Of a stretch of DNA of 44,077 nt, positions 1,843-36,809 are shown piece by piece. The notes under the pieces are model-generated. The model was not told the origin of the DNA, ran no database searches, and was given only the letters and a program-made list of their open reading frames with translations. The position numbers were made by a program, and so were the translations under genes. Every line of letters starts with the position of its first letter. Position 1 is the stretch's first letter. Source of the DNA: a virus; the UHGV virus genome UHGV-1969024, one strand, 5' to 3'.

Positions 1843-1880
1843 TACCTGAAATCAGCCCTGCGGGGCTGCCAGGAGATGTT

Positions 1881-2207: not shown

Positions 2208-2475
2208 CCCTTTCGACAAGATGGCGGCCCGGATGGATGCCGCCACCCTCAAAAAAATGGGCAAGGAAGCGGTCATTAACGGCATAAGCGTTGACGTCGT
2301 GCCTGCTGAGTTGCTGGAGGAGATGGGCGCACTTTCCGGAGCCGCCACGGTGCTGGTCGTGTTTGCTGCTGGTTATCGGCCCGCCAGAAACGATGCCGTG
2401 GAATATGACGGTAAAGACTGGATCGTTACCCGCTATCAGTTTTTTAACGGGAAGCCTCAAATCTGGCTGGAGTGA
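2200..2475 (+). CDS. Head-tail attachment protein (FII-like) candidate
   Basis: 92 aa from ATG at 2200, overlapping the previous stop by 8 nt. The ORF-track N-terminal extension (from 1981) overlaps the upstream gene and is rejected. Assigned by position between head and tail genes. Confidence 0.45.
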   Translation: MPNPFDKMAARMDAATLKKMGKEAVINGISVDVVPAELLEEMGALSGAATVLVVFAAGYRPARNDAVEYDGKDWIVTRYQFFNGKPQIWLE

Positions 2476-2478
2476 ATC

Positions 2479-3057
2479 ATGTCTCTGAAAGGTCTTGAGC
2501 GTGCTATCCAGAATCTGAACAGTCTGAGCCGACTGATGGTACCGACGGCTACCGCGCAGGCGCTTAACCGGGTTGCCGGGCGAACAATTACGCAAGGTAG
2601 CCGCAAGGTGGCGAAAGAGGCAACGGTTGGTGATAACCGCAAAAAAGGGTTGCCGGTGAGGCTGGTCCGGCAGCGGTCGCGTCTTAAGCGCGCGAAACCT
2701 GATCGTCTGGTGGCGGCCATTCGTATTAACAGAGGGAACCTGCCTGCAATCAAACTGGGTGCTGCACGGGTGCAGCTTTCGAGGCGAAAAGGCGAAAAAC
2801 GCGGGCGCGGGAGTGTGCTTCGTATTGGACCGTACATTTTCAAAAATGCATTTATCCAGCAGCTTGCGAACGGGCGGTGGCAGGTGATGCACCGTCTGGG
2901 TAAATCCCGCTACCCGATTGATGTTGTGAAAGTTCCTCTCGAAACCCCGTTAACCCAAAACTTCACCGCTATATCAAAGCAGCTTATCGACAGTGACATG
3001 CCGAAGGAGCTGTCGTCCGCGCTGAAAAATCAACTGAGGATCCACCTGAAGCGATGA
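2479..3057 (+). CDS. Z: Minor tail protein Z-like
   Basis: 192 aa, the same length as lambda gpZ, and basic. GGAG RBS. Lies in a translationally coupled string with U and V. Confidence 0.6.
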   Translation: MSLKGLERAIQNLNSLSRLMVPTATAQALNRVAGRTITQGSRKVAKEATVGDNRKKGLPVRLVRQRSRLKRAKPDRLVAAIRINRGNLPAIKLGAARVQLSRRKGEKRGRGSVLRIGPYIFKNAFIQQLANGRWQVMHRLGKSRYPIDVVKVPLETPLTQNFTAISKQLIDSDMPKELSSALKNQLRIHLKR

Positions 3058-3455
3058 GCAAACACACCGCTATTCGTCTTGCTGTTCTGGACCAGTTAAA
3101 GACGTCCATTCCGGACCGTGTGACATGGTTTGACGGACGCCCTGTCTTTCTGGAAGAGCAGGATCTACCGGCGCTCGCAGTCTATCTGACGGATGCCGAA
3201 TACACGGGAGAAAGCCTGGATGAGGATAGCTGGCAAGCAGTCCTTCATATCGAGGTATTTCTGAAATCCACCACGCCGGATAGCGCGCTGGATGCGTGGA
3301 TGGAAGAGAAGGTGTATCCGGCTCTTGAAACTATCCCGGCGCTATTTCCCTTAATCGAAACGATGATCCCCATGGGCTACGACTACCAGCGTGATGACGA
3401 AATGGCCACCTGGGGATCGGTCGATCTGACCTATACCCTCACTTATTTTAGATAA
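3054..3455 (+). CDS. U: Tail terminator protein U-like
   Basis: 133 aa (lambda U is 131 aa). ATGA start/stop overlap with Z. Confidence 0.6.
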
Positions 3456-7900: not shown

Positions 7901-8108
7901 TGCGCCTGCAGGTGTATTCGCAGGCGGCGTGAATGTCTATGCGCCTGTCAGCGTGACAACACAGCAGACTGGAAACAATCTGCAGCAGGGTAATTCTGAT
8001 TCTGTCGGAAAAGCTTATCAGCAGGTTGTAAATCGATCCGTGCAGGATGGGATAGCCAAAGCGCTGCGTCCGGGTGGACTTATCTGGAATGCAACTAACC
8101 GGAGGTAA
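4965..8108 (+). CDS. H: Tail tape measure protein (H-like)
   Basis: 1047 aa, Ala/Gln-rich and helical, with a GG-rich C terminus. Position is after GT. Confidence 0.9.
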
Positions 8109-8112
8109 TATT

Positions 8113-8460
8113 ATGGCAATTGAAACATTCGCCTGGCGTATTCAGGCAGCCAGTCAACCTACGTTAAAAAGCAAAGATAATATCCGGAGGGTTCAATTTG
8201 GTGATGGCTATGCACAGGTATCCGGGAACGGCATAAATAATGAAACACTGAGTTATGAGTTCTCTTTTTCTGGCGACCCGGATACTGCTCTGGAAATTTA
8301 TAAATTTTTGCGTCGTCACAAAACCAAGGCGTTTTCTTTTAAACCGCCAGGTGGTGAATTAGCGTTGTGGCGGGTTCAGGCCGACAGCCTGCAAAAAGTT
8401 ATTCAGGGAAAGAAAGTCATCACCATTACTGCAACGTTTGAACAGGCATTCGTACCATGA
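8113..8460 (+). CDS. M: Minor tail protein M
   Basis: 115 aa from the ATG after RBS ggaggtaatatt. The earlier ORF-track start overlaps H. Confidence 0.8.
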   Translation: MAIETFAWRIQAASQPTLKSKDNIRRVQFGDGYAQVSGNGINNETLSYEFSFSGDPDTALEIYKFLRRHKTKAFSFKPPGGELALWRVQADSLQKVIQGKKVITITATFEQAFVP

Positions 8461-9212
8461 GTCTTCACGCTGATTATCAGAAACTGGAGCCGGGAGATGA
8501 AATCCGGCTATTCGAAATTGACGGAAGTGCTTTTAATATGGGTGATATTTTATATTTTCACGGATATAACATACCCCATACCGAAGCGGAAATTGTGGCT
8601 GCTGGTGGCGATGAATCGAAGCTACCGGCCAAAAGCATCTGGTGGCAGGGCATCGAATATAAAGCATGGCCTTGTGAATTAGAGGGGATCGAATCCTCGA
8701 CTTCAGGAAGCGACGCGCAGCCGACACTGAGGGTAGGCAACATTGATGGTTCGATTTCCGCGCTCTGTCTTCATTACGACGATCTGGCTCTGGCGCGGGT
8801 TGTCATCCACGATACGCAAAAACAGTATCTCGATGCGAAGAACTTTCCGGACGGGAATGCTTCAGCTGATCCGACACAGGAGAAACGGCGCCTTTTCTTC
8901 ATCGACGTAAAGCATTATGAAGACGATGAGAAGGTGGAATTTACTCTCTCCAGCCCGTTTGCCCTGCAGGGGATGATGATCCCCACTCGCCAGCTGCATG
9001 CGATTTGCAGCTGGTGTATTCGCAATCAGTACCGCAGTGGTAACGGGTGCGATTATGCCGGCACCCGGTATTTTGACAGGAACAATCAGCCAGTTGATGA
9101 CCCGTCGCAGGATGTCTGCCCCGGCACGCTCACGGCCTGCAAATTACGTCATGGTGAGAATAGTGAACTGCCGTTTGGCGGGTTCCCTGGCACCTCATTA
9201 ATCAGGAGCTGA
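8457..9212 (+). CDS. L: Minor tail protein L (Fe-S cluster cysteines)
   Basis: 251 aa. C-terminal Cys cluster CSWC...C...C...C, as in gpL. Confidence 0.85.
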   Translation: MSLHADYQKLEPGDEIRLFEIDGSAFNMGDILYFHGYNIPHTEAEIVAAGGDESKLPAKSIWWQGIEYKAWPCELEGIESSTSGSDAQPTLRVGNIDGSISALCLHYDDLALARVVIHDTQKQYLDAKNFPDGNASADPTQEKRRLFFIDVKHYEDDEKVEFTLSSPFALQGMMIPTRQLHAICSWCIRNQYRSGNGCDYAGTRYFDRNNQPVDDPSQDVCPGTLTACKLRHGENSELPFGGFPGTSLIRS

Positions 9213-10608: not shown

Positions 10609-13600
10609 ATGGCAAATAACATCATTAAAGGGCGCAAGGGTGGCGGCTCAAAGCAGCGTACACCGACGGAACAGCCGGATGATTTACAGTCCGTTGCGAA
10701 AGCCAAAATTCTGCTCGCATTAGGTGAGGGTGAATTTGCAGGTGGTTTAACCGGTAAAGATATTTATCTTGATGGCACCCCGCTTGAAAATGCTGATGGT
10801 TCGCAAAACTTCAGTGGCGTGTCCTGGGAATTTCGCCCCGGCACGCAGGCTCAGACTTATATTCAGGGTATTCCCGGTACTGAAAATGAAATCAGTGTGG
10901 GATTGGAAGTTTCCAGCAAGACAGCCTGGACCCATACCTTTACTAATACCCAGCTTTCTGCCGTTCGTTTTCGTCTGAAATGGCCGTCCCTGATGAAACA
11001 GGAAGATGACGGCGACGTGGTGGGCAATACCGTCAGGTATGCGATTGACCTGCAGACCGACGGCGGCGCCTGGCAGACGGTGCTGGAAACCGCTGTCTCG
11101 GGTAAAACCACCACCGGTTATGAGCGGAGCCATCGTATTGATCTGCCCCAGGCCTGCAGTACTTGGACGCTACGTCTGCGTAAAATCTCTCCGGATGCAA
11201 ACAGTGTCAAAACTGGCGACGTGATGACGCTGCAGAGCTATACCGAAGTGATTGACGCGAAGCTGCGTTATCCCAACACCGCACTGCTTTATATCGAGTT
11301 CGACTCCAGCCAGTTTAATGGCTCCATTCCGCAAATTTCCTGTGAGCCGCGTGGGCGCGTAATCCGGGTGCCGGATAACTACAATCCGGAAACCCGCGAA
11401 TATACCGGCGTCTGGACCGGCGGGTTTAAATGGGCCTGGACGGATAACCCGGCCTGGATCTATTACGACATTGTTATCGCTGACCGTTTTGGTCTCGGTA
11501 ATCGTCTGAGCAGCGCCAATATTTCGAAATGGACGTTGTACCAGATTGCACAGTACTGCGATCAGCTGGTTCCTGACGGGCGCGGTGGTGACGGCATGGA
11601 GCCGCGCTATACCTGTAACGTCTATGTCCAGGAACGCAACGATGCTTACACCGTGCTGCGAGATTTTGCCGCCATCTTCCGGGGCATGACCTGCTGGAAC
11701 GGTGAGCAGATTGTTGTGCTGGCTGATATGCCGCGTGATGTCGATTTTACTTATACGCGCGCCAATATTGTCGGCAAACCCCGTTATTCGAGCAGCAGCA
11801 GCCAGGTTCGGTACACCAACGCCCTGGTTTCCTGGTCTGATCCGGATAATGCTTATGCTGATGCGATGGAGCCTGCGTTTATCCCTGAACTGGTTTCCCG
11901 CTACAGTTTTAACCAGCTCGAAATGACCGCGATTGGCTGTACGCGCCAGAGCGAAGCCCACCGTAAGGGACTGTGGGGCATACTGACCAACAATAAGGAC
12001 CGCATGGTCGAAATTGATGTGGGGCTGGACGGTCGCATTCCTCAACCCGGTTATATCATTGCCCTGGCGGATGAGTTGCTGGCCGGACGGGTCAACGGCG
12101 GGCGAATCAGCGCGGTGAATGGCCGGGTGATTACGCTGGATCGTGATGTGGATGCCAAACCTGGCGACCGCCTCCAGCTAAACCTGCCATCAGGGATCTC
12201 ACAGAGCCGGACCATTCAGGCTGTTAATGGACGCCGACAGATTACGGTCACAACGGCGTACAGTGAGACGCCGGAACGGGAATGCGTCTGGGCCATTGAA
12301 TCCGATGACCTCTTCCTGCAGCAGTACCGGGTTACAGGGGTAAAAGAGAACAACGATGCCACCCTCACGATCACCGGCGTGGCACATGACCCGGATAAAT
12401 TCGCCCGCATCGATACCGGCGCTATTATCGACCAACGCCCGGTTAGCGTATTGCCGGCGGGCAACCAGTCACCTCCTGACGATATTGTCATCACATCCCG
12501 CTCGGTCGTGAATCAGGGGATCAGCGTCGAAACGATGCAGGTTAACTGGTCAGCGGTCAGCGGTGCTATTGCCTACGAGGCGCAGTGGCGCCGTAACGAC
12601 GGGAACTGGATTAATGTGCCGCGCAGCTCGACCACCTCGTTTGAGGTCAGCGGCATCTATGCCGGTCGTTACCTGGTTCGCGTCCGCGCGATCAATGCGG
12701 CGGAGATTTCGAGCGGGTGGGCGTATTCCGAAGAGAAAACCCTGACCGGCAAGGTCGGCGAGCCGCTGGCACCGCTGGCGCTGGCAACCCGTTCGCTGGT
12801 TCATGGGGTCCAGGTTAGCTGGGAGTTCCCGACCGGCTCCGGGGATACGCTGCGCACGGAACTGCAGTACAGCAAAAATCAGGACGGCAGTGCGCCGATG
12901 CCGTTATCAGACGTGGCCTATCCGGGGAAAAGCTATCAGCAGATGGGCCTCAGTATGGGCGCAGAATTCTGGTATCGGGCGCGCCTTGTTGATCGTCTGG
13001 GCAATGAAAGCCCGTGGACCGGCTGGGTCCAGGGGATGGCCAGCGATAACTTTGATGACTACTACGAAAACCTGACTGACGCGATCAAGGATACGGCTGC
13101 CTGGGAGGAAACGCAGCGTACCATTAGCGAAACGCAGGAAGGTATCCGCAATACGCAGCAGGAACTGGAGCAGACCGCTGAAGAGCTGCGTCAGGAAGCC
13201 GCAGATCAGGCGAAGCAGGTCAGCCAGAATATTGATGCATCGGCGAAAAGCATCACTGCTGATGTGAATCAGCAGATAGCAGTTTTGAGCAAGTCGCTTG
13301 CCGACGGCGATGCCGCATTGAATGCGCAGATTAAAACTGCCGAGAATGGCCTGAAGCAGTCGTTGTCTCAGGTCAACACCACGTTAACCAATGCGGTTAA
13401 GCAGGAAACTGCGGATCGTATCGCAGATATTAACGCGAAGGCGGCACAGGCTGCTGATGAACTGCTGGCGGCAACGCAGGGGATTGAGGCGAGTATCGAG
13501 AGCCTGACTCAGGTAATGAAGAGTGCCGATGAAAATCTGGCGCGGGAAATGTCCAGCCTCGCTGCCGGCGCCAATATCCAGTTCGATTCGCAGGTTATCT

Positions 13601-16600
13601 GGCATTTCAACAGTCAGACGACCGAGGGCTGGACCGGCAGCGCCGGCGTACCGGGTGTGTCCCGGGATGGCTGGTTACGCCCTGCGGACAGCGCCACCGA
13701 TCCGTACATTACCTCTCCCGGCGGTCTGGCTGTCGATGGTGCAGCGTACCGCTTCATCATGCTGCGCTTTCGTAAAACCGGCAAACCAGTCTGGGCGGGT
13801 GAGATCCGTTGGGTGTCTGCCGGCGAAAACTTTAATAACACGAAGCGATACATTGTTGCTGAGCCGGAATATGCCGATGGGGTGGCAACCCTGACGGTGC
13901 GTGATATTCCGTGGACAGGGAACATTGATCGTATTCGCCTGGACCTGACGAACCAGCAGGATGCCAGCAACTTTATCGAATTCGACTGGATCGCCGTTGG
14001 CCGGCCAGCACCCGGCGCCAGTACGGCGGCTCTGCAGGATGTGCGCAGTACGCTGAGTAACGCGCTGACCTCCGAAGCACAGGCACGCAGCACGCTGGCG
14101 GCGCAGATGCGTGGCTCCTATGATGGCAGCGATCTGGAGAAAGTCACCTCCGGGCTGCTATACCAGGAAAAAACGGCGCGCGTTACCGCCATCCAGGCGG
14201 AAGTTAAGGCCAGAGAGTCCCTTCAGACGCAGTTTAACGACAACAAAGCTGCTGTTTCTGGTGAACTGAGTTCTCTGACGACAGAGCAGCGCGCGCAGGC
14301 GAGCCGTATCGGTGGTCTGGAAACCAGCCTCGGGAAAAAAGCCGATGCGACCGCGCTGACGTCCCTGACGCAGAAAGTTGAGCAACAGGGCGCCACGCTG
14401 ACATCGCAGGGCGCCGCGTTAACATCACTCACTAACCGGGTGGGCCAGACGGAAACGGGCCTGGCTGGTACGAATGAGGCGCTGAGCGGGCTGCAGTCTG
14501 TTGTTACCCGTCAGGGCGACAGGATAACCAGCCAGGGTCAGTCCATCACAAAACTGACGAGCGATTTGGGCACGACAAATTCCGCGCTGGTGAAGAAAGC
14601 CGAAGCGGCTGCGGTCACTGCCTTAACGCAGCAGGTGGAGCAAAACGGGCGGGATATTCGCAGCAATACTGACAGTATCACCCGCCTGTCGAATCAGCTG
14701 GTCAATGGCCAGCCGAATAGCTGGTCCCGTCGGATCTATCCTGTGCAGCTGGCTAACGCCGTGACAGTCCCGTCATTCAGCGATATTCGCGCCGTGGCGC
14801 CAGTGGTCGTGGATGAGGTGGCCGACGCGACCAGACTGGACTTTACGTCCGCCGGGAGCTATTTGATCGCGCTGTATTCCTGCCAGGTGAAAGTGGCGGC
14901 CGATACCACCATCACAATGACGCCCGGTAACAGGGTTTTTGATGATACCGGTGCTGTATTTGTAAATGGCGTTCAGGTTGCCTGGGGAAACGCCAGCTGG
15001 ACTACCGTCAGTTTTGATCTGAAAGCCGGCTGGAACACAGTTGAGTTTCTGGTGAATCAGTGGGCTGGCCAGGCGTATATCAACCTGGGACTGAAGCTGT
15101 CAGACAAGGTTGCTGAGATGTACTCCGGTCTCGGTGTTTCCGCGCTGGCAAACGCAGCCGGCGTACTCAGCTCGAATGTCAGCCAGATTGGCAACGATGT
15201 GGTCAGCAATTCGCAGAGCATCACCCAGCTCCGGAATGCGCTGACGCAGACAGACGCGAATGTGGCCAGCAAAGCGGATCAGACGGCGATGAACTCCCTA
15301 ACCGGACGAGTGGAGAAGACGGAGTCCGGTCTGACGGCGGCGAACAGCAACATTACGTCGCTCAGCAGCTCTCTGAGCCAGCAATCCAAACGCGGCGCTA
15401 ATCTGCTTCCTGATGGCACTTTTGAAAGTTACGCGGTTGGTCACAATCTGGCGAATAACCGTGCCATCGTGACCACTGACGACTCGCATGGCGGCAATAA
15501 ATGCATTCGTGTGACGCGTCCGAATGACTACAATGCCAATGCAACTGACAACACTGACACCCACATTTTCAGCGGATTCCAGGTTCGCGATAACGCAGTC
15601 TTCTATATGGAATGCTGGGTTAAGCTGGATTCCAGGAGTACCGCTATGGCCGGGAACGTGCAGATTTCCGTCGGCTTATCGCTCCAGTATCAGGACAACT
15701 CCTGGCAGTGGCCGGCAGTTACCAAAGCGGCAAAGGATCTCTCTTCAACTCAATGGACGAAGGTTTCTGGTTACCTGAAATCAACGAAGAGCGGTATTAA
15801 GCAGGCAATGGTCAGGATTTCTATTCCTAACGTTAGCAGCGTTAAGGCGGGTAACTCATTCCTCATTGATGACCTGGTCATTACCGAAGTGACTGATGCC
15901 TACAATGCGCAAAGTACAGCAGATGCTAACGCTAATGCGATTTCGACACTGAACTCGACCGTATCCCAACAGGGCGGCCAGATCACCAGTCAGGGTAACA
16001 GCATCACTAAACTGATAAATGACCTGGCGAAGACTAATAATAACGTCAGCAATAAAGCAGACGCTAATGCTCTGACGGCACTGACCAACCGTGTTACCCA
16101 GACCGAAAAAGACATTAACTCAACGAGTTCTTCTGTCACGAATCTGAACAACAAGGTTGATGCAATTTCTGTCGGCGGTACAAACCTGATCAAGAACTCC
16201 GGCGATATGACCGGCTGGTCGAACGTTGTCAGCGATACGTATCGTGGTAACGCGGTAATTAGCACAACTGTAAAAGCCGGCTCCGGTTACAGGGATTTGC
16301 GGGAAATCACGCTTGAGTCGCCGCTCGATGCAGGGGAGTACGTTTACAGCTTCTATGCGAAAGGCGGCGTTGCTGGCCAGACGATGACGGCGTTCTTCTA
16401 CAATCCGAACACCACAACGTCTATCGAGACCAGCCAGGGTGCGAAAGGTAACAACACTGATGGTCGTGCGCAGTTCACGCTGACCACTTCATGGGCCCGC
16501 TATTGGGTTAAGTGGAAACAGACACCTACCACGGGCACCAAGCGCCTGATTCTGTGCCGTATCGAGAGCAATACCTCCAAAGACCAGACGGTGTACATCA

Positions 16601-19545
16601 ACAGTCCGAAGTTTGAGGTAGGTAACGTTGTTTCCGACTGGAACGAGTCTCCGTCTGATAGCGCCAGTGCGTCGGCTGTGGATTCGCTGACAACGAAAGT
16701 GAATCAGCAAGGCACTTCCATTAGCTCTATCGGAAATCGCACCACATCGTTGGAAAACAGGTTATCGACAGCTCAGAACAACATTGCCAGGAAGGCTGAT
16801 GCTTCTGCATTGCAGGATCTCCGGAACACGGTGACATCTCAGGGGGGCGATTTAACCGCGGCGAACAGTAGCATTACCAGCCTGCAGGCCTCGATGAACC
16901 GTCGCACTGTGTTTACTGTCACTGCACGGGGGAATGGCAACAGCGTAACTCCTGGGGTTTTTGATGAAAGCGGCAAAAACCTGTTTACCCCTGGTCGCAG
17001 CTGGGCACTGGTCACTTTTGCAAAACACAGCAACGGATCAACGGTGATTGCGACATCCAAAACATACGATGTCTTTGGCAGCGCGAATAATGGTGCCACG
17101 ATGTCGGCTGATATCGAGGCGTTGGCCAGTGGCACTTACGTTTGCGTCCTGACATTCGATGAGCCATCTGGCAACCGAGGTAAGATATTGTCTGCTCTGG
17201 AATCTCTTGGTGGTACATCCGAAGTCGTCAACTCCCTGCCGTATCGTGGTGCCTATATTCTCCTTGGCCGCAAAGGCATGAGGCCGGGCGATGGTCTGGA
17301 ACTGCGTGCGCCAACCGGTGGTGACGCCACTGCCCACATTTCGACCTCAGTCGAGTTTGTGAACGGGGTAATGATGGGACTGGGCGCCGCCGGCGGTGTG
17401 ATGATGAAGGCTGATGCGAACGCGTCGGCAATTACCACGCTCCAGAACACAGTGAAGGCCCAGGGGGGTAATATTGACTCCCTGAGTTCCTCGGTAACGG
17501 CGCTGGAGAACAGCCTCAGGTCGACAAACGATACGGTGAGTAAAAAGGCCGACACGTCCGCGGTGAGTTCACTGACCGGTCGCGTAAGCCAGGTGGAAAA
17601 CACCATCACCAGCCAGTCGCAGAGCATCACGTCGCTGACCAGCACCATCAATACCATCCGCACTCAGGGAGCTAATCCGTGGGTTGACGGTACGTTCGAA
17701 AGCTACGGAGATGGTCATGTGCTGGGCGGGGGCGGCACCGCCGTTGTGGTGGAGTCGCAGAAATTCACCGGCAATAAGAGCCTGCAGGTGAGCCGGGGAG
17801 CGAACAATAACGGCAACAGCGATAAACAGCTTGGGAGCTGGCAGTCAGTCCGTGAGGATGCGAAGTTCCGGTTTGAGTTCTGGGCCATGATGCCGGCGGA
17901 TCAGAAACCCTCCTCCGGGTGGACAACGCTGGTCGGTATCAACTCACTGAATGCTGCCGGTCAAAACTCCTGGCAGTCGGCGGTCACTGTCAGCGAAGCC
18001 GCTCTTGGTGCGCGTGATAAGTGGGTGAAATTTACGGGTATTGCCAGTAACAACGGGGGTGGTAGAACACGCGCGGTGGTCTGGATCTCCACCCGTGGCG
18101 CCTCCGGCAGCGGCACCCCCGGTTATTCGCTGTATATCGACGATCTGGTTATCACGGATGTTACCGATGCGAAAGCGGCACAGGATGCCTCTGACGTGAC
18201 GGCGAGTGCCGTAAGCGGTCTGACGGCTCGCGTAACGGATGCCGAAGGGAAAATCACCGCCCAGGCGCAGCAGCAGGCGGCACTGGCCACGAAAGTGGAT
18301 AATGCCAACTCCCGCGTCGATAACATGGCGAAGACGCTGAGCGACAGCCAGAACACACAGGCCAGTCTGAATACCTCGCTTCAGTCGCAGATTGACGCGC
18401 AGGCGGCCGCCAACATCAAAAACCAGACGACGCTGGACAACACGATTAAATCGGTGGCCAGTATCACCAGTACCCAGCAGACGCATGCAACGGCACTGGA
18501 GGCCCTGGCAACGCAGCAGACGACCCTGACATCCAGTGTCGGGGATCTCAGTGCTTCCGTTCAGAATACCGCCAAAACCGTGGCGGCTGTGAATGGTACG
18601 GTGAGTTCTCTGTGGTCGATGAAGGTTGAGACGGTTAACGGGAAGAAGGTTGGCGCGGGGATTACGCTGGGCAGCAATGGTGAAACGAGCGACATTATCC
18701 TTTATGCCGACCGCTTCTCGCTGTTTAACCGTAATAATGCGACGGCTGTTCCGGTGATGGTTGCCGAAGGCAATGAACTGTATATCGATACGGCACGTAT
18801 CAAAAACAGTTCCCTGACCTCAACCAAAATCGCGGACGGTTCCATCACGAACGCGAAGATCGGCAACGAGATCCGCTCGAATGACTTTGTTGACGGGTCA
18901 CGCGGCTGGCGTATCGCTAAGGATGGCTCTTCGCAGTTCAACAACGTGATCGTTCGCGGTGCGGTTTATGCGACTGACGGCTGGTTCCAGGGTACGGTAT
19001 ATGCGAACCACATCGAGGGCGACATCGGGTCATTTGCGATCAACATCGCTCAGCACCGCACGCGCAAGGTGCCGAAGGCTACATGGCAGTGGTTTGAGCT
19101 GGCCCGGTTCCGGCGGCAGAATTTCGACCAGGTGATCAATATTCGCGGTGGACTCCTCCAGACGGATAGCATCACTATCTACGGCGGCGCGAAACTCAGA
19201 GCGGGGATGTCCTACGCGCCAGGGGCTGACGGCGGACTGAATCCTGGCTATCTGTCGTATGCAATGCTTCTTCGTGGCACAGGCGCTACGTCTGGTGGCG
19301 GCAGTATGGAGCTAGGCATTGAGCTTATGTATGAAACAGGTGGAGCAACACGCCTGTTAACGGCGCAAGAGTCAATGAACGTAGACAACATGTCATTTGT
19401 CGTCCCTGCCGGTACTGGCGACGCTGTTCTGCGATATGGCTGTTACCTGGACCGTAACGGACAGATGGTATTAACCATCCTCTCAAGATTCGACGCCTTC
19501 GCCGCGCGCAATAACAACGTAATTAGAGCTGCATCATCTGCTTAA
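10609..19545 (+). CDS. J: Host specificity / central tail fibre protein J, giant (2978 aa), with a large internal modular insertion
   Basis: The N-terminal ~1000 aa are J-like. The C-terminal ~340 aa resemble the lambda J receptor-binding end (SLWSMKVETVNGKKVGAGITLGS...VMVAEGNELYIDTARI...). The middle ~1650 aa hold repeated coiled-coil-like units (...SQGNSITKL...KADANALTALTNRVTQTE...) interleaved with beta-sandwich modules, three of them CBM-like paralogues. Confidence 0.9.
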   Translation: MANNIIKGRKGGGSKQRTPTEQPDDLQSVAKAKILLALGEGEFAGGLTGKDIYLDGTPLENADGSQNFSGVSWEFRPGTQAQTYIQGIPGTENEISVGLEVSSKTAWTHTFTNTQLSAVRFRLKWPSLMKQEDDGDVVGNTVRYAIDLQTDGGAWQTVLETAVSGKTTTGYERSHRIDLPQACSTWTLRLRKISPDANSVKTGDVMTLQSYTEVIDAKLRYPNTALLYIEFDSSQFNGSIPQISCEPRGRVIRVPDNYNPETREYTGVWTGGFKWAWTDNPAWIYYDIVIADRFGLGNRLSSANISKWTLYQIAQYCDQLVPDGRGGDGMEPRYTCNVYVQERNDAYTVLRDFAAIFRGMTCWNGEQIVVLADMPRDVDFTYTRANIVGKPRYSSSSSQVRYTNALVSWSDPDNAYADAMEPAFIPELVSRYSFNQLEMTAIGCTRQSEAHRKGLWGILTNNKDRMVEIDVGLDGRIPQPGYIIALADELLAGRVNGGRISAVNGRVITLDRDVDAKPGDRLQLNLPSGISQSRTIQAVNGRRQITVTTAYSETPERECVWAIESDDLFLQQYRVTGVKENNDATLTITGVAHDPDKFARIDTGAIIDQRPVSVLPAGNQSPPDDIVITSRSVVNQGISVETMQVNWSAVSGAIAYEAQWRRNDGNWINVPRSSTTSFEVSGIYAGRYLVRVRAINAAEISSGWAYSEEKTLTGKVGEPLAPLALATRSLVHGVQVSWEFPTGSGDTLRTELQYSKNQDGSAPMPLSDVAYPGKSYQQMGLSMGAEFWYRARLVDRLGNESPWTGWVQGMASDNFDDYYENLTDAIKDTAAWEETQRTISETQEGIRNTQQELEQTAEELRQEAADQAKQVSQNIDASAKSITADVNQQIAVLSKSLADGDAALNAQIKTAENGLKQSLSQVNTTLTNAVKQETADRIADINAKAAQAADELLAATQGIEASIESLTQVMKSADENLAREMSSLAAGANIQFDSQVIWHFNSQTTEGWTGSAGVPGVSRDGWLRPADSATDPYITSPGGLAVDGAAYRFIMLRFRKTGKPVWAGEIRWVSAGENFNNTKRYIVAEPEYADGVATLTVRDIPWTGNIDRIRLDLTNQQDASNFIEFDWIAVGRPAPGASTAALQDVRSTLSNALTSEAQARSTLAAQMRGSYDGSDLEKVTSGLLYQEKTARVTAIQAEVKARESLQTQFNDNKAAVSGELSSLTTEQRAQASRIGGLETSLGKKADATALTSLTQKVEQQGATLTSQGAALTSLTNRVGQTETGLAGTNEALSGLQSVVTRQGDRITSQGQSITKLTSDLGTTNSALVKKAEAAAVTALTQQVEQNGRDIRSNTDSITRLSNQLVNGQPNSWSRRIYPVQLANAVTVPSFSDIRAVAPVVVDEVADATRLDFTSAGSYLIALYSCQVKVAADTTITMTPGNRVFDDTGAVFVNGVQVAWGNASWTTVSFDLKAGWNTVEFLVNQWAGQAYINLGLKLSDKVAEMYSGLGVSALANAAGVLSSNVSQIGNDVVSNSQSITQLRNALTQTDANVASKADQTAMNSLTGRVEKTESGLTAANSNITSLSSSLSQQSKRGANLLPDGTFESYAVGHNLANNRAIVTTDDSHGGNKCIRVTRPNDYNANATDNTDTHIFSGFQVRDNAVFYMECWVKLDSRSTAMAGNVQISVGLSLQYQDNSWQWPAVTKAAKDLSSTQWTKVSGYLKSTKSGIKQAMVRISIPNVSSVKAGNSFLIDDLVITEVTDAYNAQSTADANANAISTLNSTVSQQGGQITSQGNSITKLINDLAKTNNNVSNKADANALTALTNRVTQTEKDINSTSSSVTNLNNKVDAISVGGTNLIKNSGDMTGWSNVVSDTYRGNAVISTTVKAGSGYRDLREITLESPLDAGEYVYSFYAKGGVAGQTMTAFFYNPNTTTSIETSQGAKGNNTDGRAQFTLTTSWARYWVKWKQTPTTGTKRLILCRIESNTSKDQTVYINSPKFEVGNVVSDWNESPSDSASASAVDSLTTKVNQQGTSISSIGNRTTSLENRLSTAQNNIARKADASALQDLRNTVTSQGGDLTAANSSITSLQASMNRRTVFTVTARGNGNSVTPGVFDESGKNLFTPGRSWALVTFAKHSNGSTVIATSKTYDVFGSANNGATMSADIEALASGTYVCVLTFDEPSGNRGKILSALESLGGTSEVVNSLPYRGAYILLGRKGMRPGDGLELRAPTGGDATAHISTSVEFVNGVMMGLGAAGGVMMKADANASAITTLQNTVKAQGGNIDSLSSSVTALENSLRSTNDTVSKKADTSAVSSLTGRVSQVENTITSQSQSITSLTSTINTIRTQGANPWVDGTFESYGDGHVLGGGGTAVVVESQKFTGNKSLQVSRGANNNGNSDKQLGSWQSVREDAKFRFEFWAMMPADQKPSSGWTTLVGINSLNAAGQNSWQSAVTVSEAALGARDKWVKFTGIASNNGGGRTRAVVWISTRGASGSGTPGYSLYIDDLVITDVTDAKAAQDASDVTASAVSGLTARVTDAEGKITAQAQQQAALATKVDNANSRVDNMAKTLSDSQNTQASLNTSLQSQIDAQAAANIKNQTTLDNTIKSVASITSTQQTHATALEALATQQTTLTSSVGDLSASVQNTAKTVAAVNGTVSSLWSMKVETVNGKKVGAGITLGSNGETSDIILYADRFSLFNRNNATAVPVMVAEGNELYIDTARIKNSSLTSTKIADGSITNAKIGNEIRSNDFVDGSRGWRIAKDGSSQFNNVIVRGAVYATDGWFQGTVYANHIEGDIGSFAINIAQHRTRKVPKATWQWFELARFRRQNFDQVINIRGGLLQTDSITIYGGAKLRAGMSYAPGADGGLNPGYLSYAMLLRGTGATSGGGSMELGIELMYETGGATRLLTAQESMNVDNMSFVVPAGTGDAVLRYGCYLDRNGQMVLTILSRFDAFAARNNNVIRAASSA

Positions 19546-23952: not shown

Positions 23953-25413
23953 TTAATCTATGCTATCAAGAAGGTCAAAAATATTGTCTGGCTGCAATGC
24001 CCATCTGTACGCAGGGTGTACCTCCCAATCATAGCCGAAATCAGCAAACTTGCTGGAAAGATATCTATTTTGCTCGAAGTATTTTCTGTCTATTGTTCCG
24101 TCTGGCAGAACTTTTCTTGCTGTAATAAAACCTATTTTATATAAGAATGCTGCTAATTCTTTTGTTGATAGAGTTTTATTGTTTCTTCCTTTGAATATGC
24201 CTTGTTGTTCTATTGATTTTATTTTTTCCAGCAAGGAGTTCGTAGAGTAGTTATAATTCTCTGATGCTTTAAGTTGTCGTTTTGAGGGTTTCATTCCCAG
24301 TATTAAGCGTTCGACATCTGGTAATTCAGATACAAATTCATTAATTGTATCTTGTAATCTGCCTTGAGAATATTCATCTAGTATTGCCTGCAAATGTTTC
24401 GTCTTAATTATTGGGGATTCATCATCCTGAGCCTGCCTAGCTGCGAGGGTTAAAAGCTTTACTAGGTCTCGAGGTCTTTTTCTAATCAATGACATTAAAA
24501 TTTTATGCATGGGTGCATTAGACCACTTACCTCTTCCTGTAAATCTATCTTCAATTATATCTGTTAAGTAATTCATCAAGTCTGATTGTTTTTTTTGTAG
24601 AAGTTCTTTATCACTTACACCATAATGTCCATTATATGTTGCAACCCTTTTTATCAGAAGTGCAAATATTTCATGGTTTGACCAGTCGAACCAAATAACA
24701 GAGCCTTCAGTTTTATCGGTAGACTCATCCGATGTTCTTGAAAGGAAATAAACATCTGATCTCAAGTTTACCCTGAAATACACACCACGATTTTCACTGG
24801 AAATATCTCTCACAGCATTAAGTAGTGCGGAGATTCTCTGTATGTCTTCTAATCTTCCTTGCCATCCTCGGTCAAGATCATCTATATAAATTGAAACTTT
24901 GTTTGTGTCTAAAAAATTACGTATTGCCTTGGCTTTTATTTCGGAGTTTATCCTGGATAAATCAACTTTATCTTTGATATTGATTGTTTCACTCAAAACA
25001 TCTAATAGAGTTACACCCGCCCCCAATGCTTTATGTATTATGCTTTTGTCCTCGTCGAATAAACCGAAGTAGGTCATAATCTTATTAGTTATGATTTCGT
25101 TTATTCCTAATTTCCAACGAGTAATGAGGGATAAAAAATCCTCATCTTTACCGCCAATACCTGCTATATCATCTGGTTTTATAATGAAAGTTAACCGCCC
25201 ATTATTTCTTTCATCATCCATGCCAATTTGAAATAAAGCCGACTTACCGATTCCCTTATGCCCAACCAATATTCTTAAAGGAATGTCAACAATGACTTTT
25301 GAATAAATTTTTCCTTTAAAATAGTATTCTTTTAGTCGATCTATTTCTTCACTTTCAGCCGCCTCTTGACCAAAAAGGCGTTGTATGTTTAGTTCTGAAA
25401 AATCCATCTCCAA
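23953..25413 (-). CDS. P-loop NTPase, KAP-family-like (Walker B DDLDR); candidate defence/exclusion protein
   Basis: 486 aa. Walker A GHKGIGKS (aa 51-58). Walker B SIYIDDLDRGW (aa 174-184). AT-rich. Convergent with the NACHT gene. Confidence 0.5.
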   Translation of the reverse strand: MEMDFSELNIQRLFGQEAAESEEIDRLKEYYFKGKIYSKVIVDIPLRILVGHKGIGKSALFQIGMDDERNNGRLTFIIKPDDIAGIGGKDEDFLSLITRWKLGINEIITNKIMTYFGLFDEDKSIIHKALGAGVTLLDVLSETINIKDKVDLSRINSEIKAKAIRNFLDTNKVSIYIDDLDRGWQGRLEDIQRISALLNAVRDISSENRGVYFRVNLRSDVYFLSRTSDESTDKTEGSVIWFDWSNHEIFALLIKRVATYNGHYGVSDKELLQKKQSDLMNYLTDIIEDRFTGRGKWSNAPMHKILMSLIRKRPRDLVKLLTLAARQAQDDESPIIKTKHLQAILDEYSQGRLQDTINEFVSELPDVERLILGMKPSKRQLKASENYNYSTNSLLEKIKSIEQQGIFKGRNNKTLSTKELAAFLYKIGFITARKVLPDGTIDRKYFEQNRYLSSKFADFGYDWEVHPAYRWALQPDNIFDLLDSID

Positions 25414-29257: not shown

Positions 29258-29914
29258 TCAGAGGTCCGTGACAACCTGCCTGACAACACCAACGATCTTA
29301 CAGTTGCCATTTACTTCCATCACACGATAGTTCGGATTAAGAGGAACCAAATATTTTATAGGTCCATCAATTACAAATTTTTTCAGCGTTGCCTCTGCTG
29401 AGCCCATCACTTGGGCAACGACAATCTTACCGTTTACTTCGTAAATACTGCCGTAGTCTGGGTCAACAACAACGATTGAGCCCTCAGGTATGCTTGGGGC
29501 ACCGTTAGGGTTAGTCATTGAATCACCACGTACTTTCAGAGCGAATCCTTCATCACAAAGATTTGCGGTTGTGTAAATCCATTCTGAAACATCATTTTCG
29601 GTAACTGGCGCGCCGCTTTCGGTCCATTCACCAGCCTGAACCCAAGATAAGACTGGAATCCTTTTCACGCCAAAACGTTCGGTAGGCTTATAGGTTGGTG
29701 CCTCCGATACAGGATCTCCAATACCATGAATTATCCATTGAGGATTCGTTTTTAACGCAGCAGCAAGCGCCTGAAGGTTAGAACCCCCTGGCTCATAATC
29801 TCCTGACTCCCACCCAGTAACAGTCACACGGTTAACGCCCACTAATTTGGCTAAGACCGCTTGGGTTAGTTTCAGCTCTTTACGTCTTGCACGGATGCGT
29901 TCATTCATTTTCAT
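29258..29914 (-). CDS. cI: CI-type repressor (HTH_XRE + S24 LexA-like peptidase)
   Basis: Start taken as MKMNERIRARRKELKLTQAVLAKLVGVNRVTVTGWE (HTH). C-terminal GDSM Ser and LKKF Lys dyad. The ORF-track N-terminal extension runs through the operator region and is rejected. Confidence 0.85.
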   Translation of the reverse strand: MKMNERIRARRKELKLTQAVLAKLVGVNRVTVTGWESGDYEPGGSNLQALAAALKTNPQWIIHGIGDPVSEAPTYKPTERFGVKRIPVLSWVQAGEWTESGAPVTENDVSEWIYTTANLCDEGFALKVRGDSMTNPNGAPSIPEGSIVVVDPDYGSIYEVNGKIVVAQVMGSAEATLKKFVIDGPIKYLVPLNPNYRVMEVNGNCKIVGVVRQVVTDL

Positions 29915-29976
29915 GTAGGCAATCCTACCATTTTGTAATGTAGGAATCCTTGACCTTTGAGTGTAAGATATCCTAC
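29915..29976. promoter_or_regulatory. Divergent cI-cro operator/promoter region with three related 14-bp sites
   Basis: GTAGGCAATCCTAC (29915..29928), GTAGGAATCCT (29940..29950) and GTAAGATATCCTAC (29963..29976). A repeated TCCTACCATTTG lies beside sites 1 and 3. Confidence 0.5.
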
Positions 29977-30013
29977 CATTTGTTTGTCTGCTTCCCTTAC
30001 ATATGAGGAAAAA

Positions 30014-30211
30014 ATGAAAAAAGTTGACGTGATTACTTACTTTGGCTCCGTCGGTAATGTGGCAAAAGCGCTGGGTATATCTCATGCCTCTGTATCCGGT
30101 TGGGGGGAGGTCATTCCAAAAGGGCGAGCATTTGAAATCCAAGCTCTAACAGAAATGAAGCTGAAAGTTAACCCGGAGTTGTATTTAAAGGCTAATCAAA
30201 CAGCAGCTTAA
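30014..30211 (+). CDS. cro: Cro-like HTH regulator
   Basis: 65 aa from MKKVDV after RBS gaggaaaaa. HTH VAKALGISHASVSGW. Divergent from cI. Confidence 0.7.
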   Translation: MKKVDVITYFGSVGNVAKALGISHASVSGWGEVIPKGRAFEIQALTEMKLKVNPELYLKANQTAA

Positions 30212-32849: not shown

Positions 32850-33830
32850 ATGAGAGCATTACTGACTCCTGAAATTGCCCCACGCATGGGCATTGTTCTT
32901 CTTCGCCCTGGCACCGAGCTGATGCCGCTGTTCAGGAGGGGGCGGGTTCTGATTGAGCCGGCACCGGAAAAATACAGTGACTATGCAACCGGCGCCATAC
33001 CTCCCGCTACGCAGCCACTGGCAGAAGACCCGCTTTTGAAGCCAGTATTCGAAAACAATGATGTCATTCTGCGCGCGGGTGGTATTAGCTCGCTGGAGGC
33101 CGAGCTGGAGCGTCGGTTTGAATGCCAGTACCCGCACGGTTCGTGGCACAGCGAAAATTTTACATTGTTCCGTCATGAGCCTGGCAGCATCCGGCTTTGC
33201 TGGGCCTGCGATAACCTGGTGCGTGACCAGTACACAGAGACGCTGGCAGGCATTGCGCGTGAGAACCTGGTATCCTGGCTGATAACGGTCATCCGCGCTC
33301 AGCTGGGGTTCAACGAAGACCATCAACTGACGATACCGGAATTGTGCTGGTGGCTGGTGATAAACAATCTGGCGCACGTCATACCTGAAACGCTGGCGAG
33401 GAAAGCTCTACGGTTGCCGGAAATAAAGCATCAACCGGTGATGAAGGAGAGCGATATTGTGCCGGAGCTAGAGGCGAGCGAAGTGGTGCAGAAAAAGATT
33501 CTCGGTCTTCGCGTAGATCCTGAAACGCCGGAATCTTTCATGCTGCGACCAAAGCGCCGCCGCTGGGTTAACGATAGCTGGACTCGCTGGGTTAAGTCCC
33601 AGCAGTGTGTCTGTTGTAACAAACCAGCAGATGATCCCCACCACCTGATAGGCCACGGACAAGGTGGAATGGGAACGAAAGCGCACGACCTGTTTGTGTT
33701 GCCGCTTTGCAGAGCGCATCACGACGAGTTGCACGCTGACACCGTGGCATTTGAGGAGAAGCACGGCTCACAGCTGGAGCTGCTGTTTCGATTTCTGGAT
33801 CGTTCGCTGGCAATTGGCGTAGTAGCATGA
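32850..33830 (+). CDS. DUF968-like protein with C-terminal Cys/His (HNH-like) cluster
   Basis: CVCCNKPADDPHHLIGHGQGG...CRAHHDELH. Sits in the nin-region position before Q. Confidence 0.55.
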   Translation: MRALLTPEIAPRMGIVLLRPGTELMPLFRRGRVLIEPAPEKYSDYATGAIPPATQPLAEDPLLKPVFENNDVILRAGGISSLEAELERRFECQYPHGSWHSENFTLFRHEPGSIRLCWACDNLVRDQYTETLAGIARENLVSWLITVIRAQLGFNEDHQLTIPELCWWLVINNLAHVIPETLARKALRLPEIKHQPVMKESDIVPELEASEVVQKKILGLRVDPETPESFMLRPKRRRWVNDSWTRWVKSQQCVCCNKPADDPHHLIGHGQGGMGTKAHDLFVLPLCRAHHDELHADTVAFEEKHGSQLELLFRFLDRSLAIGVVA

Positions 33831-34207
33831 AAAGTGGAGAAAACATGCGTGATATTCAAATGGTATTAGAGCGTTGGGGGGCTTGGGCCGCGAGCGATAG
33901 TTCAGGCGTGGATTACTCACCAATCGCTGCTGGTTTCAAAGGGCTTCTTCCTCAAACAAGTAAATCGCGCCTTTCATGCACTGACGACGACGCCCTGATT
34001 ATCGAAGGGTGTTTGGCTCGGCTTCAAAAACGAAAACCCTATGAGCATTCACTATTGGTTGCACATTATTTGTATGGCATCTCGAAGCGGAAGATAGCAA
34101 AGGCACGAAAGAAGGATGAAAAACTGATTCGTATAGAGATACAGATGGCAGAGGGGTTTATAGAGGGTTGTCTAGCTATTCTAAATGTTAGTTTAGATAT
34201 GGATTAA
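33827..34207 (+). CDS. Q: Late antiterminator Q (Q82/QuuD type)
   Basis: MRDIQMVLERWGAWAA...IAAGFKGLLP is the Q82-family signature. Starts at 33827 (ATGA overlap) or 33845. Confidence 0.7.
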   Translation: MKSGENMRDIQMVLERWGAWAASDSSGVDYSPIAAGFKGLLPQTSKSRLSCTDDDALIIEGCLARLQKRKPYEHSLLVAHYLYGISKRKIAKARKKDEKLIRIEIQMAEGFIEGCLAILNVSLDMD

Positions 34208-34250
34208 TATCTGGGTTTGGATAAGCAGGTGTGCTTGCACCTGCTTAATA

Positions 34251-34703
34251 TTATATATGGGGCAATATCCAGTTGATTTTTCTCCAAGTACTTGCAAATG
34301 AAACTATAGATACGATTAGAGTCGAGAAACCATATAAGGTAAGGGTGAAATCAAGTCTTACCGAGGTAATGATGATTTTTTCATTTATAAACATTGCGAT
34401 CAACGGGAAAATACATGCTAATATTAAGGTGACGCCCGTAGATAACAGGTTACGAATAATTTTAGGTAAAATTTTATTTTGTTTTAAAGCAAAAATAATT
34501 CCATCAGTGCTTGAACTTGCAGAACTAAAGATGGAAATGGCGGCCAATACAAACCCAAACAAAATGCCTGCCACCGTAGATAATACTCCGGCTGTACTTA
34601 AGATATCAGAGTGAGCCATAGGTGCTAGGTATTTCCCAAGCACCCAAGCTAACAGCCCACTGATAACTATGTTAATTAAAACTTTAATAAGCATAATCAT
34701 CAT
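34251..34703 (-). CDS. Small 4-TM membrane protein (150 aa), second gene of an antisense AT-rich cassette
   Basis: Four hydrophobic helices. AT-rich. Stop is 15 nt after the upstream gene. Confidence 0.6.
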   Translation of the reverse strand: MMIMLIKVLINIVISGLLAWVLGKYLAPMAHSDILSTAGVLSTVAGILFGFVLAAISIFSSASSSTDGIIFALKQNKILPKIIRNLLSTGVTLILACIFPLIAMFINEKIIITSVRLDFTLTLYGFSTLIVSIVSFASTWRKINWILPHI

Positions 34704-34717
34704 CCATAAAAATAAGA

Positions 34718-35650
34718 TCAGATTTCATATTGCCTTAAATACTGACTATGTTCAATTTTAGCACTGATCAAGGCAGTACGCACATCAGTTTCTTTTGCGT
34801 AGCCATCTTTTGTATTAACGTTTTTTTCACTGATCAGAACTTGATCGAGAAGACTCCTTGAGCGAGTATTTTTAGGTTCGGTAACATTAGCTTTACGTAA
34901 TAAATGAGGAACTTTTTCTAGTAATTCCTTTATTCCGCTTTTTACTTCATCGCTGAGATATCCACGGACTAATTTACGTTGCGATGCTCTACCTCTGAGC
35001 GATAGTTTTAAATGTGAACCGCCCATCCCAGCCATCATTTCAATCATACTCTTGGAAAATGAATTCGAAAGGTCATAATCCGTTGCGCTAAAATTACGCG
35101 GAGCGGCGAGTGTAATTTCACAGCTACGTAAAGTGCTTCCTGTTTCAAGTAGTTCTTTTACGCTTTCTTTTTTCCAAATTGCCTCAAACGCTACAGGTTT
35201 GTTTACTTCAGAAAAATTGAATAAAAGAAATGCTAAATCGGAATCTTTAGGCCCTAAATGATTTTGAGATAAAACAAGAATATCTTTCTTATAGTAGTAA
35301 ATAAAATAAGTGCGTTCGACTATATATTTTTTATCATCTAATGGAATATTGTGTTCGTCCCAATTTTCATCACCAATATAAGGTAAGTGGAAACCATCAC
35401 GAGAGCATGATAGATAACCAAAATAGAACTCTGCCTGTGAGTCTTTTTCTAAGAATACAATCTTTAATTTTTTCTTATTGAACTCAGCTGTATAAGAGTT
35501 TTGCGAAGGTGTAACAACGGTTGTATACATTTTGTCAAATGCAAGTTGTGCATTTGATGTAGTTGACTTCGTTCCTGAAGAGCTTTGGAAGAAACCGATA
35601 CGCATCTTTTTTTGTTTGGTTAGTGGCGCGGAGGTGGCTGTAGTAGTCAT
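34718..35650 (-). CDS. Hypothetical protein (310 aa), first gene of the antisense AT-rich cassette
   Basis: Long ORF with an AT-rich, Lys/Asn/Tyr-rich composition. No recognised domain. Confidence 0.55.
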   Translation of the reverse strand: MTTTATSAPLTKQKKMRIGFFQSSSGTKSTTSNAQLAFDKMYTTVVTPSQNSYTAEFNKKKLKIVFLEKDSQAEFYFGYLSCSRDGFHLPYIGDENWDEHNIPLDDKKYIVERTYFIYYYKKDILVLSQNHLGPKDSDLAFLLFNFSEVNKPVAFEAIWKKESVKELLETGSTLRSCEITLAAPRNFSATDYDLSNSFSKSMIEMMAGMGGSHLKLSLRGRASQRKLVRGYLSDEVKSGIKELLEKVPHLLRKANVTEPKNTRSRSLLDQVLISEKNVNTKDGYAKETDVRTALISAKIEHSQYLRQYEI

Positions 35651-36120
35651 TAAAAGTACCCTTTATTATCCTTTTGAATCAATGTGTTGTGATTCATGAA
35701 TGATCCTAGGTTCGTTGCATATGCGTAATCTATCAAAAAAAACTTACGCGGTCCGCATTTTCTCGTTTACTGTGTTAAGAGTGGTCACTTCGACACACAG
35801 CTTAATCATCAGAACCTCGTCAAACTGCGGGACTGTTGCATCTCAGGCCTAGGCTTGAGCCTCCAGAACTCATTTGTCACCTGAGCCTGAGACTTATACT
35901 ATCTCTTTCCAGGAACCCGTTAAGCCGGATGTGGATACATTGAAAGGGTCCAGGTTCCACAATAGCCAGCTTGAGCTATTAGAGTTGCGCGCAAGTAGTT
36001 TGGTGATATGCCGCTAGGTAACCTTGCTGCGTTCTGTGGTTAAGGCTGGGAGGTTTTTTAGCATCGGCAGTTATGTTTCTGACATTGACGCTTCAAATGT
36101 TTGGATCATAAATTATCGAT

Positions 36121-36235
36121 GTGGTGAATCCCCCTATGCGGAGGGGCGGCCAGTCAGTTACAGAAACCTGTAAATGCAGCGCGGGCCATGCCGGCTGGGG
36201 CATGCTCACCGGGAGGCACCCGGCACCACACTGCC
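36121..36235 (+). other. GC-rich structured block (possible ncRNA or Q-utilisation related element)
   Basis: Enclosed by GTGGTG...CACCAC. Internal hairpins ccccctatgcggagggg, atgcc-ggctgg-ggcat and ccggg-aggca-cccgg. GC is far above the flanks. Confidence 0.3.
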
Positions 36236-36391
36236 ACTAAACATATTTAAGATTTATGGCAGGTTTACTTTTGCGGTTGCCCTTCTATGTTTATAGAACG
36301 TAACGGCAAAAGTGAATGCTTCTTGGTAAATCGGTAGCTCGGACTATTAGGAGTGCCTTCGTTTCGTTACTACCTAGAATGCCTACTTTCT

Positions 36392-36416
36392 GCCCGCCTT
36401 CAGGCGGGCTTTTTTA
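36392..36416 (+). terminator. Strong rho-independent terminator (candidate tR-prime of the late operon)
   Basis: gcccgccttcaggcgggc plus T6. About 180 nt upstream of the holin. A weak sigma70-like promoter (TTTACT-16-TATGTT) lies ~100 nt upstream. Confidence 0.6.
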
Positions 36417-36593
36417 CGCCATCAATAGGGCGCTTCAGAAAGAAAAGGTAAACATCATTTGAAGGCTGCGCTTTGCGTGGCCTTTCTTATTTCAGGCTCA
36501 CGGGAATCATCATCGATACGGCTCGTTGTTAAATCAGCCCGATGAGCCTGACCCCTACACGCACAAAGCACCCCGTTAACCCGGAGGTGGAGT

Positions 36594-36809
36594 ATGTATC
36601 GAATGGACAAGCTAACAACAGGTATTGCCTACGGAACGTCCGCAGGTAACGCGGGGTTCTGGATGTTGCAATTGCTCGACAAAGTATCCCCATCTCAGTG
36701 GGCCGCGATCGGTGTTCTGGGAAGTCTGGTATTTGGCTTGCTGACATACCTGACGAATCTGTATTTCAAAATTAAAGAAGACCGGCGAAAAGCTGTGCGA
36801 GGTGAATAA
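36594..36809 (+). CDS. S: Pinholin (S21-like) with dual-start antiholin/holin motif
   Basis: [71 protein letters not shown] is near-identical in pattern to phage 21 S21 (71 aa). MYRM gives Met1/Met4 dual starts. RBS ggaggtgga. Confidence 0.85.

Follow-up and report, generated by a model that had tools for sequence, protein, structure and literature searches.

Two minus-strand genes located between the gene for the Q antiterminator and the lysis genes of UHGV virus genome UHGV-1969024 (44,077 nucleotides, the whole of which is referred to below as the window) encode, we propose, a remote homolog of the lambda rexA-rexB pair that acts as a prophage-encoded abortive-infection (exclusion) module of the Rex type, a reading to which we assign a probability of about 0.6. 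Remote homology of the cassette to RexAB is, taken on its own, highly likely. The window is a complete lambdoid prophage with a Klebsiella host, and the exact cassette proteins are annotated in Klebsiella. The first-pass annotation of this DNA had noted the resemblance to RexAB from protein sizes and gene order alone and had suggested an undescribed exclusion system. Structural and profile comparisons show remote homology for both proteins, and exclusion or abortive infection is the best reading of their role, but the cassette probably represents a divergent branch of the Rex family rather than a new kind of system. It displays the structural and remote-sequence features of Rex pairs but is missed by the curated Pfam Rex models and does not occupy the genomic position of the lambda rex genes.

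The upstream gene of the cassette encodes a protein of 310 amino acids (aa) in which no known domain had been recognized at first. Its sequence does match the Pfam domain DUF6731 (Pfam ID PF20505) over residues 12 to 269, with an E value of 1e-10 and 42.1 bits against a gathering cut-off of 27, as well as PHROG 7651, and RefSeq lists the Escherichia coli and Klebsiella copies as “DUF6731 family protein”; there is no mention of DUF6731 in the literature searched. The AlphaFold model of this protein, with a predicted local distance difference test (pLDDT) score of 83, shows the split globular domain with an inserted dimerization domain of the RexA fold (RdgC/CHL4/IML3-like). In a Foldseek search of the PDB with this model, a check that the first-pass annotation had proposed, lambda RexA (PDB entry 8TWQ) ranked first with an E value of 6e-7, followed by RdgC and CENP-N. 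Identity with RdgC itself was rejected, as RdgC has a much lower structural score than RexA, no Pfam RdgC match was found, and RdgC has no membrane partner and is not phage-borne. The kinetochore proteins CHL4, IML3, and CENP-N likewise score far below RexA, lack a partner in the membrane, and are not carried by phages.

In sequence comparisons, the homology to RexA is visible only at the profile-profile level, once both sides have been broadened. The hhalign comparison of the close family with the single lambda RexA sequence was not significant, an hmmsearch with the close-family profile against PDB sequences returned nothing relevant, and a RexA-family hidden Markov model (HMM) built here scores the 310-aa protein at an E value of only 0.35. 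When 168 DUF6731 sequences were compared with 32 RexA homologs, hhalign gave a P value of 4.2e-6 and a probability of 87% over 251 columns, aligning residues 16 to 307 with residues 1 to 268 of RexA and revealing a GP..sDL motif common to both families. A reversed RexA template gave a P value of 0.23, and 150 block-shuffled RexA templates scored 20.8 ± 4.3, with a maximum of 30.8, versus the observed 47.0. By structure and profile comparison, the 310-aa protein is a remote homolog of RexA. A DUF6731 homolog with 61% identity, encoded by Escherichia phages vB_EcoS-733R5 and 716R3 (accession numbers ON470608.1 and ON470622.1), is labeled “portal (connector) protein,” which is almost certainly an annotation error.

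The downstream gene encodes a small membrane protein that matches PHROG 8552. It had initially been described as a 150-aa protein with four transmembrane (TM) segments. The AlphaFold2 model (pLDDT, 84) bears out the four long helices (residues 2 to 25, 31 to 62, 78 to 105, and 117 to 146) and places a short amphipathic helix within the central loop, but the length needs revision: a start at the fourth codon, giving 147 aa, is likelier because homologs begin there and because the 147-aa form is recorded, without any change, on 460 contigs. The gap between the two genes, previously given as 15 nucleotides (nt), measures 14 nt if the product has 150 aa and 23 nt if it has 147 aa.

The comparison of this protein with RexB was done family against family, using 73 partners encoded at DUF6731 loci, close as well as distant, and 19 distinct RexB homologs taken from genes located 3' of rexA in viral contigs. 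With these sets, hhalign gave a probability of 94.9% and a P value of 4.6e-8 over 87 columns, with residues 22 to 111 aligned to residues 26 to 113 of RexB and with TM2, the central loop, and TM3 in register; a search against the single lambda RexB sequence had found nothing. The reversed RexB control gave a P value of 0.085 and the cross-family controls gave 0.68 and 0.75, and none of 150 block shuffles of the RexB side reached the observed score of 50.1, the maximum being a single shuffle at 44.7. In plain HMMER searches, the RexB-family HMM detects the Pseudomonas partner (E = 1.2e-7), the Vibrio partner (E = 1.7e-5), and orf53 of phage cdtI (E = 2e-3). The best-conserved features of the partner proteins are TM2, with a G.L.GF..A..S motif, and the basic central loop that follows it. 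Foldseek comparison of the membrane model with viral structures produced no match at an E value of 1e-3 or better; its second match, with a probability of 0.99, is a 165-aa protein of mycobacteriophage Sbash, which, judging by its equal length, is very probably gp31, the Rex-like membrane effector of that phage. On profile evidence, the membrane partner is a remote homolog of RexB, and this link is good but weaker than the one to RexA.

The two genes occur together with high regularity. The membrane-protein gene lies directly downstream on the same strand, as in Rex-type pairs, where a four-helix protein of ~145 aa is encoded just downstream, in every one of the 80 IMG/VR loci that encode a DUF6731 relative, down to 45% identity. 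Among metagenome loci of very distant relatives, the same holds for 46 of 49, and in two of the other three the contig breaks off, which leaves 46 of 47 assessable loci paired; the two genes often overlap. Comparison with a 95%-identical E. coli variant gave ratios of nonsynonymous to synonymous substitutions (dN/dS) of 0.11 for the 310-aa gene and 0.04 for the membrane-protein gene. Both genes are under purifying selection, and spurious open reading frames (ORFs) are excluded by these ratios together with the conservation of the two proteins. Homologs of both proteins are found across Enterobacterales and Vibrio. A search of 1.84 billion cluster representatives with a profile retrieved 234 DUF6731-type clusters at 50% identity, mostly of 280 to 310 aa, and the DUF6731 match is present in 59 of 60 distant relatives. 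The exact Klebsiella proteins are found on more than 400 contigs, the 95% variant sits in the Q-adjacent slot of 18 complete E. coli genomes, and the same slot is occupied by the pair in a 47%-identical E. coli variant and in the toxin-converting phage cdtI (orf54 and orf53).

Several Rex-type systems are available for comparison, and five examples of this class have been described experimentally (PMC12894663). Lambda RexA and RexB (Pfam IDs PF15969 and PF15968) have the same gene order as the cassette and similar sizes (279 and 144 aa versus 310 and 147 aa here), both proteins align with their counterparts over corresponding regions in profile-profile comparisons, the membrane partner has four helices, a conserved TM2, and a basic central loop, and both systems are prophage-borne. 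In contrast to lambda, identity is only ~12 to 13%, the Pfam Rex models miss the cassette proteins, and the pair in the window, like most pairs in Enterobacterales, is antisense between Q and the late region, outside the immunity region. The cI-like gene of the window (positions 29258 to 30142) has no rex genes alongside, and the cassette lies 4 kb away, past Q. The lambda-type position, 3' of cI, is occupied in a relative from Pseudomonas phage AUS531phi, where the pair directly follows a gene for a Cro/CI-family repressor. Among functional precedents for a divergent Rex pair, the best is RexABpp of Pseudomonas putida prophage P1 (PP_5643/PP_5644), for which phage defense, DNA binding, and membrane damage dependent on the membrane protein have been shown (PMC12894663, 2026). 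It is prophage-borne and has a four-helix membrane partner but differs in its larger proteins (~37 kDa with tag; at least 181 aa) and in its location near a cI-like repressor rather than Q. The RexABpp termini deduced from the published primers match none of the collected proteins, and IMG/VR, searched for exact DNA matches, gave no hit, a comparison that covers the primer-derived ends only.

The actinophage systems Sbash gp30/gp31, CarolAnn gp44/gp43, and Butters gp30/gp31 also combine a soluble protein with a four-helix membrane protein encoded after it and are expressed from the prophage. However, their RexA-like proteins carry DUF4747 rather than DUF6731, and the cassette proteins have no match to DUF4747 in Pfam. 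Comparison of both family profiles with Sbash gp30 and gp31 by hhalign gave P values of 0.22 and 0.39, i.e., no detectable profile similarity, and none was detectable between the Sbash proteins and lambda Rex either; in the Sbash-type systems, only the fold of the membrane protein resembles that of the cassette's partner. The cassette is nearer to lambda RexAB than are the actinophage systems, which lack profile similarity to either family. In the Sbash genome (locus L187, positions 6934 to 8509), genes 30 and 31 overlap each other by 41 nt and are located two genes 3' of those for lysin A, lysin B, and holin; in the DUF6731 family, too, overlapping genes and nearness to the lysis module are seen.

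Taking the Rex-type systems of lambda, Sbash, CarolAnn, and P. putida as mechanistic precedents (PMC6426596, PMC12894663), we infer the following scheme. In the lysogen, the cassette would be transcribed from its own promoter, antisense to the late operon, with transcription ending at the hairpin between the cassette and the end of Q. The 310-aa protein would be cytosolic, with the RexA/RdgC clamp fold, and probably dimerizes and binds DNA without sequence preference. It might recognize infection from a phage protein or from a replication or recombination intermediate and would then activate the 147-aa membrane protein by way of the conserved TM2 and the central cytoplasmic loop. The membrane protein, in turn, would permeabilize or depolarize the inner membrane, so that ATP falls, growth stops, and the superinfecting phage fails, making the lysogen phage resistant.

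Several observations weigh against this interpretation. The Pfam RexA model does not match the 310-aa protein in a scan at E values up to 1, where DUF6731 is the sole hit, nor does the Pfam RexB model match the membrane protein. The RexB-family HMM, run directly on the partner from the window, does not detect it, so that profile-profile comparison or intermediate sequences are needed, and lambda RexB is not among the top 50 Foldseek matches of the membrane model in the viral library. As one block shuffle came near the observed score, much of the signal lies in TM2, and the RexB link depends largely on this one conserved TM segment. PADLOC has no match for either protein; NCBIfam returned only noise for both. 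A promoter scan yielded no more sites than shuffled sequence and no convincing promoter for the cassette: the sole sigma-70-like match upstream of it (positions 35693 to 35665) is too near the start codon to convince. Finally, exclusion as the true role of Rex is a matter of debate even in lambda (PMC11077077, discussion), and in Butters the roles are reversed, with the RexA-like gp30 being the effector and the membrane protein gp31 restraining it (PMC12894663).

The Butters arrangement suggests an alternative in which the DNA-binding protein is the effector, blocking replication or late transcription of the invader, and the membrane protein acts as a sensor or sequesterer. Such a logic would agree with the RexA/RdgC fold being a DNA clamp, with the lambda RexA mutants that separate DNA binding from exclusion (PMC11077077), and with the Kiwa system, where the membrane protein senses infection and its DNA-binding partner inhibits late gene expression. 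Kiwa, like the cassette, combines a small multihelix membrane protein (KwaA) with a DNA-binding partner of ~300 aa (KwaB). Membership in Kiwa was rejected, as neither a DUF4868 match (Pfam, E values up to 1) nor a PADLOC match was found and the gene order is the opposite, with the soluble protein encoded first here; there are no Kiwa chains among the structural matches. The first-pass annotation had also named CBASS and other defense families for comparison, and for these, too, PADLOC gave no match. Among characterized systems, both cassette proteins are nearest to lambda RexA and RexB, and it is the membrane protein that serves as the effector in lambda, Sbash, CarolAnn, and P. putida. Conservation of TM2 and of the following loop, the central cytoplasmic loop in which the Sbash gp31 substitutions R70A and D73A abolish defense, also fits a gated effector, and we regard the reversed assignment of roles as unlikely.

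The genomic settings of the pair bear on a further alternative, in which the cassette is not a defense system but a life-cycle regulator that tunes the lysis-lysogeny decision or damps leaky Q expression by convergent antisense transcription. A gene of the same Q family is found tail to tail with the pair, at a distance of 19 to 143 nt, in 71 of 79 viral loci, the insertion lies exactly between Q and a Q-linked block (see below), and lambda RexA is known to bias the bistable switch independently of RexB, which antagonizes it. However, the pair occurs apart from Q as well. In addition to its position after cI in Pseudomonas, it is found, in line with the suggestion that other islands be searched for it, in a Vibrio chromosomal island that also encodes a resolvase, and in Vibrio phage 10N.286.54.F4_PE001 (locus L190, positions 1389 to 2896), where genes for proteins of 351 and 150 aa lie beside the integrase gene of a 14.6-kb non-tailed (Vinavirales) temperate element, so that the module crosses between unrelated virus realms. 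Distant pairs in metagenomes adjoin genes for type I restriction-modification systems, an Eco57I-type methylase, HerA, and integrases. Moreover, the hairpin between the cassette and Q could stop read-through, and the presence of unrelated antisense cargo in the same slot suggests a permissive insertion site rather than a functional tie to Q. A regulatory role is accordingly rather improbable. Least probable of all is an addiction (toxin-antitoxin-like) stabilization module or a selfish passenger without benefit to the host, to which the AT-rich foreign character of the cassette, a possibly toxic membrane protein with a soluble partner, and wide horizontal spread of the genes would be congenial, as against remote homology that points specifically to Rex, strong purifying selection on both genes over long divergence, the defense-type neighborhoods of distant members, and the lack of a toxin-antitoxin family match for either protein.

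Rex is the oldest abortive-infection system known, and its mechanism is unsettled after 70 years. Assignment of the Pfam family DUF6731 and of an unnamed membrane family to RexA and RexB would provide hundreds of diverse sequences for comparison, which highlights the GP..sDL motif of the soluble protein and, in the membrane protein, the TM2 motif and the basic loop that follows it. Invariant positions in the two proteins of the window are N130, G133, P134, and D138 (soluble protein) and G46, G50, F51, S57, and K74 (membrane protein). The pair is widespread yet missed by current defense-annotation tools, which matters for phage therapy directed at Klebsiella and E. coli. We offer, as a tentative proposal to which we give somewhat less than even odds, that DUF6731 and its four-helix partner constitute a large unrecognized Rex branch, which in Enterobacterales would travel as antisense cargo in the slot between Q and its target site and could be switched off on induction. 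Its members would include pairs from tailed prophages, the non-tailed Vibrio phage element, genomic islands, and restriction-modification neighborhoods, in Proteobacteria and environmental metagenomes. If this is true, Rex is a widespread defense family rather than a peculiarity of lambda, and convergent transcription from the early operon on induction could turn the cassette off, giving the prophage a built-in self-immunity.

The layout of the region is summarized in Table 1. The first-pass description of two AT-rich minus-strand genes between Q and the lysis genes agrees with the coordinates, with the Pfam match of Q, and with a guanine-plus-cytosine content of 0.31 to 0.39 in the cassette versus 0.50 to 0.57 in the flanking phage backbone. 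The Q stop codon is 43 nt from the 3' end of the cassette. On its other side, the cassette is followed by a non-coding block that accompanies this Q family and has the palindrome GCGGTCCGC between an A-run and a T-run, with GTGTTAAGAGTGGTCACTTCGACACACAGCTTAA after them; this block stays conserved among loci whose proteins share only 60 to 80% identity. In a cassette-free prophage of E. coli MLI104K1, the block abuts the 3' end of Q directly, and the cassette is therefore an insertion of ~1.5 kb (approximately positions 34208 to 35734) between Q and a Q-linked element, which is plausibly a late promoter or a Q-utilization site. The slot had earlier been equated with that of Q-controlled morons such as stx or nmpC, which is imprecise, as the cassette is antisense and lies upstream of the Q-linked block. 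Morons of the stx type are located downstream of the late promoter and are controlled by Q, and a Q-controlled stx-like moron was rejected because of the wrong strand and the wrong side of the block.

Table 1. Features of the cassette region (positions in the window)
Feature	Position	Strand	Description
Q antiterminator gene	33827..34207	+	Convergent neighbor; Pfam PF06530 (Phage_antitermQ), E = 8e-54
Hairpin with 11-bp stem	34222..34247		Terminator-like site in scan, between the convergent stops of Q and the RexB-like gene; candidate terminator between two transcription units
RexB-like gene, 147 aa	34251..34694	-	Predicted four-helix inner-membrane protein, proposed effector; longest ORF, 34251..34703 (150 aa)
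RexA-like gene, 310 aa	34718..35650	-	Pfam DUF6731; predicted cytosolic, two-domain RexA/RdgC-type fold; proposed sensor
Cassette upstream region	35651..35734	-	Part of the inserted segment; ribosome-binding site AAGGG; poorly conserved among variants
Conserved non-coding block	35735..35810	+	Linked to Q; palindrome GCGGTCCGC; candidate late promoter or Q-utilization site
P21-type holin gene	36594..36809		Downstream of the cassette; lysozyme-sized ORF next

The gap between Q and the late promoter of lambdoid prophages appears as a defined cargo slot that gathers unrelated antisense cargo and is worth mining. In Klebsiella phage P7641 (locus L185, positions 64 to 2425, minus strand), a different antisense two-gene cassette is found at the same position upstream of the conserved block. 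It encodes a 383-aa protein of the NA37 family, another family of nucleoid-associated (DNA-binding) proteins, and a 405-aa protein without a Pfam or PADLOC match, and may be a further cargo system. In E. coli MLI104K1 (locus L184, positions 2814 to 3344, minus strand), an antisense DUF2441 gene is located between the conserved block and the holin gene, with a truncated Q remnant, a second full Q gene, and two tRNA genes among its neighbors, and this region looks like a hotspot of recombination and cargo acquisition. No tRNA genes are present in the window.

Between the cassette and the holin gene of the window is a 0.9-kb stretch free of ORFs, which contains a match to the Rfam small RNA family STnc100 (positions 36090 to 36292, plus strand; 77.5 bits) and, just ahead of the holin gene, two strong terminator-like hairpins (positions 36392 to 36409 and 36461 to 36485). 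Together, these elements may represent a late-transcript leader with a Q-sensitive terminator. The cassette-to-holin stretch is also present in Klebsiella phage P7641, at 80% identity. The remaining gene content of the prophage includes an integrase, the cI-like repressor, cII, a Dam-type methylase, a DUF968 gene, Q, lysis genes, terminase, and tail genes. A 486-aa ORF without a Pfam match (positions 23953 to 25413, minus strand), which ~0.9 kb separates from the integrase gene at the end of the prophage, is another possible cargo gene, and the tail region contains a single ORF of 2978 aa (positions 10609 to 19545, plus strand), unusually long for a tail gene of a lambdoid prophage.

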